A stretch of DNA of 64,000 bases from IMG/VR virus record IMGVR_UViG_3300042940_001591, one strand, 5' to 3'. A program made the translations under genes and the position numbers. The DNA is from a virus (taxonomy: Duplodnaviria > Caudoviricetes). Positions 61,620 through 61,704 of the stretch are shown here, piece by piece; within the stretch, counting starts at the first letter, position 1; each line of letters starts with the position of its first letter. The notes under the pieces are model-generated. The model was not told the origin of the DNA and ran no database searches. It saw only the letters and a list, made by a program, of their open reading frames with translations.

Positions 61620-61652
61620 GTGCAGTAAAACAATCCAATCATTATACAAAAG

Positions 61653-61673
61653 GTTCCACGTGGAACGTTCCAC
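61653..61673. promoter_or_regulatory. parS-like palindrome GTTCCACGTGGAAC with an overlapping additional half site
   Basis: Perfect 14-bp palindrome 61653-61666 matching the core of the chromosomal parS consensus; GTTCCAC repeated at 61667-61673. Confidence 0.65.
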
Positions 61674-61704
61674 AAATAAAGAAGGAGGTCCAAAGACCCC
61701 CTTC
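61674..61704 (-). terminator. intrinsic terminator after the sheath gene
   Basis: Minus strand GAAGGGGGTC-TTTG-GACCTCCTTC then TTTATTT. Confidence 0.8.

Follow-up and report, generated by a model that had tools for sequence, protein, structure and literature searches.

The stretch analysed here (64,000 nt, hereafter the window) belongs to an IMG/VR virus contig of 150,872 bp that is estimated to be 45% complete, related contigs reaching 333 kb, and the public runs that contain the stretch are lake-water metagenomes. Two genes on the minus strand, encoding the tail sheath and the tail tube, are separated by a gap of 340 nt (Table 1), and the genes found past the sheath gene encode a tail-fibre-like protein, a helicase, and a B-family DNA polymerase. 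The sheath profiles match only the C-terminal half of the sheath protein, T4 gp18 being much shorter with its 659 residues. The identity of the sheath protein to the nearest isolates amounts to ~30–39%, and among isolate phage genomes the sheath-tube region had no near-identical counterpart. Read in gene direction, the gap contains the sheath stop, a strong terminator, a heptamer triplet, a TATAAT hexamer, a repeat block, an A-rich box followed by a palindrome, a late-promoter-like motif, and the tube ATG.

Table 1. Genes and sequence elements in and around the sheath-tube gap, in window coordinates
Feature	Position	Strand	Remarks
Tail tube gene, 162 aa	60899-61387	minus	PHROG match phrog_4542, E 3e-26
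Late-promoter-like motif ATATTTATAA	61424-61433	minus	36 nt before tube ATG
Second conserved palindrome TTGAyAAArTCAA (TTGATAAAATCAA)	61471-61483	none	
Origin-like block: heptamer repeats ACTAGTAT / CTAGAAC / CTGGAAC around AT-rich core	61512-61620 (within 61505-61625)	none	
TATAAT hexamer, 6 nt downstream of the 14-bp palindrome	61641-61646	minus	Candidate promoter element by sequence
Perfect 14-bp palindrome GTTCCACGTGGAAC	61653-61666	none	Core identical to Bacteroidota and P. aeruginosa parS
Third GTTCCAC heptamer, abutting the palindrome	61667-61673	none	Minus-strand reading GTGGAAC
Intrinsic terminator of sheath gene: 12-bp stem, 4-nt loop, T run	61679-61706	minus	
Tail sheath gene, 3' part	61728-64000	minus	PHROG match; ORF to 64607, ~960 aa

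The heptamer triplet spans positions 61653-61673 and reads GTTCCACGTGGAACGTTCCAC. Its three abutting heptamers form two overlapping perfect 14-bp palindromes: the first, GTTCCACGTGGAAC, was read directly from the window sequence, and the second (61660-61673) is created by the third heptamer. The original prediction had claimed both the perfect palindrome and the extra GTTCCAC half site, and both are present. The motif was also said to be GC-rich in an AT-rich gap, and indeed the GC content of the 21-nt motif is 57% versus 25% for the whole gap, or 21% from the tube start to the motif with motif and terminator left out. When compared with the parS consensus TGTTNCACGTGNAACA, the palindrome matches at 14 of 16 positions, as had been announced, with the two mismatches at the outermost positions and a core that matches at 14 of 14. 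The resemblance to chromosomal parS sites is even better than first stated, as the 14-bp core is identical in Bacteroidota and in P. aeruginosa parS2/3. The prediction had further allowed for a match expected by chance under a genome-wide background model. In the window, this is the only match to the 14-mer with two mismatches or fewer, shuffled sequences predicting 0.05 per window; the record of 150,872 bp holds one copy, and its base composition predicts ~0.001 exact GTTYCACGTGRAAC cores. Because of this uniqueness in 150 kb and these low expectations, a chance origin is rejected and the palindrome is more than a coincidence of composition.

Two scans with tube proteins, each yielding ~600 related stretches, gave 96 unique loci in which both flanks of the tube gene are present. 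One site per locus is carried by 58 of these 96 loci (~60%) and no site by the other 38. In the class named 'pre' (46 loci, of which 42 came from a first pattern and 4, with GGAAA arms, were added by a later search), the site lies 230–280 nt upstream of the tube ATG, and in the class named 'post' (12 loci), the distance is 60–96 nt past the stop codon of the tube gene. When the first 76 loci are placed on a tree of sheath plus tube, those of the 'pre' class are scattered throughout, 'post' loci make up one clade, and loci with no site make up several clades. Conservation of the motif in the gap of close relatives, proposed as a check in the original prediction, was found in the seven closest gap-containing loci (L002–L007 and L058), as well as in the ~60% of the family mentioned above. 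Larger related records of 184–251 kb hold zero or one intergenic copy each. Furthermore, where genes are inserted between the sheath and tube genes (L025, L026, L039, and L056), the site is still found ~240–275 nt upstream of the tube gene, and L034 has two copies of the site upstream of its insert. The site is thus linked to the tube locus as a single-copy unit. It can be dispensed with, since ~40% of the relatives are without it through several independent losses. As a side observation, the inserts of L025, L026, L034, L039, L056, and L081 are 1–2 kb long and hold unrelated genes, which include proteins of ~230 residues on the opposite strand, proteins of 510–540 residues (one with a Cys-rich N terminus), and a protein with an FGDSWT motif; the sheath-tube gap is an insertion hot spot.

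Several neighbouring elements frame the palindrome. The terminator of the sheath gene folds strongly as RNA (–19.2 kcal/mol, z –3.96), and in the relatives the sequence of its stem is wholly changed with the pairing kept. The origin-like block is bounded by an outer inverted repeat CCAGTAT / ATACTGG(G) (CCCAGTAT ... ATACTGG), is unique in the 150-kb record, and recurs in nearly every relative; it lies 30–140 bp from the palindrome and is an element separate from it. The spelling of its repeats is clade-specific, of an ACTAGTA type or, in the 'post' clade, of an ATTAGTA type, and in L065 both halves of the outer repeat have changed in a paired manner (CCCGGTA / TACCGGG). Between the block and the late promoter of the tube gene, within 61471-61500, a conserved A-rich box AAAAAACTACGAAAAAT precedes TTGAyAAArTCAA on the minus strand, that of the tube gene, the latter palindrome being found only twice in the record. 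The word TATTTATA(A), of which positions 61424-61433, 4559, and 11781 of the window provide examples, occurs 12–60 nt upstream of genes in 25 of 130 upstream regions in the sense orientation versus 7 in antisense. It probably serves these phages as their late promoter and would be an analogue of the T4 late promoter TATAAATA. A search of the gap against Rfam gave nothing above chance, and CCCAGTAA / TTACTGGG spacer arrays were absent from the 150-kb record as read and not enriched in four relatives.

With respect to transcription, contigs from lake metatranscriptomes over 60700-62400 cover the coding parts of the tube and sheath genes, mostly from relatives at 90–95% identity; the gap is not bridged by any piece, and contigs do not reveal where transcripts begin. 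In two of the lake metatranscriptome runs, the contig of the tube gene stops in the region of the start codon (61386-61388) and continues into Illumina adapter sequence, a junction seen in contigs only, which is a possible hint at an RNA 5' end near the tube ATG. The palindrome itself probably sits in a nontranscribed spacer, with the terminator on one side and the next promoter-like sequence on the other. The single copy per record speaks against a general role as promoter, which was rejected. A sigma-54 or ECF-type promoter, with GG or GGAAC as upstream element, was rejected by eye for want of downstream elements. A TAnnTTTG box of the Bacteroidota type was not found beside the palindrome and, upstream of the genes of the record, is not enriched either (12 sense versus 12 antisense).

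Within the site, information content is ~1.8 bits per position in the arms, a value partly inflated by the site-finding pattern (the four sites added later have a changed last arm base), 1.3–1.5 bits in the centre, and 0.3–0.9 bits in the flanks. The arms GTTCC/GGAAC are kept across lineages whose flanking DNA cannot be aligned. The CACGTG centre is intact in ~23 of 60 unique phage sites (~38%), and 12 of ~60 match GTTYCACGTGRAAC in full. Among the centre spellings, ACGT is the commonest, the others being ACAT, ATGT, ACAA, ACGG, ACGA, and ACGC. All four bases occur at position 10, in contrast to the near-constancy of its mirror, position 7, and of the left heptamer GTTCCAC as a whole. Outside the core, position 1 is a T in 37 of 56 sites and position 16 is a C in 33 of 56. 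Some relatives spell the site GTTCCACGTGAAAC or TGTTTCACGAGAAACA, and many have an extra heptamer just upstream of it, either direct or inverted. At the RNA level, the palindrome folds weakly (–6.4 kcal/mol, z –0.75, 46 of 200 shuffled sequences folding as well). The arms keep their sequence, whereas the neighbouring terminators keep the pairing only, and the RNA fold is weak; we conclude that the palindrome is read as DNA sequence and not as an RNA hairpin. This constraint is not that of a chromosomal centromere, because CACGTG is often mutated and ~40% of the relatives have no site. Moreover, it is asymmetric, unlike that on the site of a symmetric ParB dimer, because position 10 varies, position 7 is near-fixed, and position 16 is mostly C.

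When bacterial genomes were scanned for the pattern, the parS consensus turned up in many phyla. In an even sampling of the phylum Bacteroidota, 115 of 121 genomes hold the exact core GTT[C/T]CACGTG[G/A]AAC (GTTNCACGTGNAAC), with 1–9 copies each, mostly 2 and clustered, a reversed-pattern control giving ~0. The variable position of these cores is only C or T, or G or A in the other arm, and GTTCCACGTGGAAC is a common Bacteroidota spelling, found for example in metagenome-assembled genomes of Chitinophagaceae and Phaeodactylibacter. The Bacteroidota loci L285–L304 hold parS cores in tight clusters of 2–9 sites, spaced by ~25–110 bp or by ~2 kb. In 20 Bacteroidota clusters with 71 sites, positions 1 and 16 vary freely, CG...CG flanks being common; the G...G flanks of the window site are therefore no counter-argument. 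The CACGTG centre is intact in 67 of the 71 sites and changed in 4, a sample picked through exact cores, as compared with the ~23 of 60 of the phage sites, which do not conserve it to that extent. ParB is encoded in five of five Bacteroidota genomes checked, with the parB gene far from the parS clusters.

In P. aeruginosa, parS2/3 are TGTTCCACGTGGAACA, parS1/4 end in C, and parS7, which has an ACGA centre, is bound more weakly by ParB; all of them are ParB targets, with graded affinities for which an intact CACGTG core matters (PMC4368675). GTTCCAC and GTTTCAC are the half-sites preferred by the P. aeruginosa ParB in ChIP-seq (PMC10419367). Judged on its sequence, the window site is indistinguishable from a genuine parS. 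The likeness to chromosomal parS (P. aeruginosa parS1–4 and the Bacteroidota clusters) encompasses the 14-bp core, the spellings at positions 5 and 12, the variable outer positions, and the intergenic place. The candidate nonetheless differs from these in being single, in lying beside tail genes with no phage ParA or ParB found, and in a poorly kept CACGTG. Many relatives have degenerate sites that resemble the weak secondary ones of P. aeruginosa (parS5–10 and heptamers), with one perfect arm, the other altered near the centre, and the same heptamer spelling; the ACGA variant of phage relatives shares its core with parS7 (PMC4368675). Yet these weak sites are scattered over the chromosome, bind ParB weakly, and have no shown role in segregation, whereas the phages have a single site at one locus.

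The original prediction had left open whether a phage or a host ParB would be the partner of the site, and a scan of the whole record supports the parS match (one copy in 150,872 bp) but not the presence of partition genes. In six-frame HMM searches, eight family records (~1.4 Mb together, each 29–75% complete) gave no ParB_N domain, and the five records checked for HTH_ParB and AAA_31 gave neither. In five records, CbiA gave nothing above the cut-off, with one match of 14.6 bits in G004, and the search for a tyrosine integrase was negative. A ParABS system encoded by the phage is thus unlikely, and since no ParB or ParA was found in the phage records, any ParB that reads the site would be that of the host. 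Concerning this host, a Shine–Dalgarno-like motif precedes only 2 of 115 genes, and the leaders are A-rich. Scarcity of Shine–Dalgarno motifs is typical of Bacteroidota, and the count of 2 in 115 therefore suggests a host from this phylum. Centromere sites on phage DNA are familiar from plasmid-prophages, namely P1 parS and the dispersed sopC-like sites of N15, some of which lie in late-gene regions. However, P1 and N15 encode their own ParA/ParB (SopA/SopB), with a spelling of their own, and lead a plasmid life; the family described here shows neither.

Taken together, the reading that we favour, tentatively, is that the palindrome is a docking site for the chromosomal ParB of the host. In its favour are the exact identity to parS, the other spellings, which also follow parS, the preference for T at position 1, the autonomy of the single copy, its relocation as a unit, and its placement in a spacer; against it stand a centre that is poorly kept, the unequal constraint on positions 7 and 10, the preference for C at position 16, and the frequent losses. 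The palindrome would then act as a stand-alone, single-copy protein-docking site on phage DNA, its reader being the ParB of the presumed Bacteroidota host. ParB dimers would nucleate at the palindrome and load with CTP as clamps onto the neighbouring phage DNA. Where relatives have mutations in the second arm beside the centre, they would offer a weaker ParB site, as known in P. aeruginosa. Because no phage ParA or ParB was found in the records searched, any effect of ParB would depend on host proteins. Three gains may be envisaged, all speculative: unintegrated phage DNA could be anchored or partitioned while the cells grow slowly, host SMC could be loaded onto phage DNA as it replicates, or numerous phage copies could titrate ParB. 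DNA modification, which is common in T4-like phages, could block ParB at the site. The broader proposal, that a large and abundant, virulent-looking family of jumbo phages from lakes, probably on Bacteroidota, loads the host ParB, and hence ParA or SMC, through a single host-centromere word, is more doubtful. A search of the literature for a virulent phage that uses the host ParB through a chromosomal-type parS yielded no case, which is not proof that none exists.

The main competing explanation, which is quite possible if somewhat less so than docking of the host ParB, is that the palindrome is an operator for a dimeric, sequence-specific DNA-binding protein, either of the phage or a transcription factor of the host, that is unrelated to ParB and reads GTTCC-N4-GGAAC, the match to parS being coincidental. 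Kept arms around a free centre are typical of the site of a helix-turn-helix or ribbon-helix-helix dimer, and the adjacent extra heptamer of variable orientation is reminiscent of operator arrays. The position of the site would also suit an operator: in many 'pre' relatives it lies 6–8 nt before TATAAT, and in the 'post' clade, whose geometry differs, it lies just upstream of a promoter-like TTGATT-17-TATATT sequence. However, TATAAT is missing in L066 and L069 although both keep the palindrome, and it is not the known promoter type of Bacteroidota. Furthermore, about 1 in 8000 random 14-bp perfect palindromes would equal either symmetric parS core, the alternative spellings of the relatives and their preferred T at position 1 follow parS, and the site is present in a single copy per genome with no candidate regulator identified.

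Two further explanations are improbable, to a similar degree. One places the heptamers in a replication origin within the sheath-tube gap, where they would serve as weak initiator or DnaA-box-like sites next to the heptamer repeats and an AT-rich core that would unwind. In keeping with this, the repeats, AT-rich core, and flanking inverted repeats of the gap are unique in the record and kept family-wide, and the helicase and DNA polymerase are encoded 3–8 kb upstream of the sheath gene. The TTCCACA spelling that results from a frequent G-to-A change matches the DnaA box consensus TTATCCACA at 7 of 9 positions; this is the best spelling, TGTTCCACA, and the window copy reaches 6 of 9, a poorer match than that to parS. 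Nevertheless, the palindrome is separable from the repeat block, because it is absent beside it in many relatives that keep the block and is relocated across the tube gene in the 'post' clade. Alternatively, the site could be a relic with no present function, either captured host DNA or a slowly decaying former site. Its loss in several clades and the decay of the centre, partly through CpG transitions (ACAT and ATGT), would fit such a history, but the arms are far better kept than the flanking intergenic DNA across lineages with unalignable flanks, and several independent changes fall on the same two central positions instead of being evenly spread.

The least probable explanation is an RNA hairpin (5-bp stem, 4-nt loop, and T-rich run) acting as a back-up terminator or as a processing or stability element after the sheath gene: a consensus scan lists the palindrome as terminator-like, its variable positions coincide with the would-be loop, and L052 shows a paired C-G to T-A change in the arms, but the fold is weak, a strong terminator already lies upstream, and the stem keeps its sequence with no covariation while single changes (GCTCC and GGAAA) break pairs, unlike in the true terminators of these loci. 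The palindrome was on these grounds, a weak fold just downstream of the real sheath terminator, also rejected as an intrinsic terminator.

Known ParB-parS systems reside on chromosomes, on plasmids, and in plasmid-like prophages equipped with a ParB of their own. If another protein reads the site, this would be an ordinary operator that coincides with the parS spelling and a warning against naming sites by resemblance alone. If, on the other hand, docking of the host ParB proves true, a phage with neither lysogeny nor partition genes that keeps an exact host centromere would represent a new kind of host take-over, the mechanism of which needs just a 16-bp site and a single host protein. The palindrome would mimic the host centromere and either carry unintegrated genomes through division or divert the host segregation machinery, and as a ParB-loading site it may pair with a putative phage replication origin next to it. 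This would bear on the persistence of large phages in lake bacteria that grow slowly, in a carrier state or as pseudolysogens, and on the question of whether phage DNA is acted upon by ParB or SMC.
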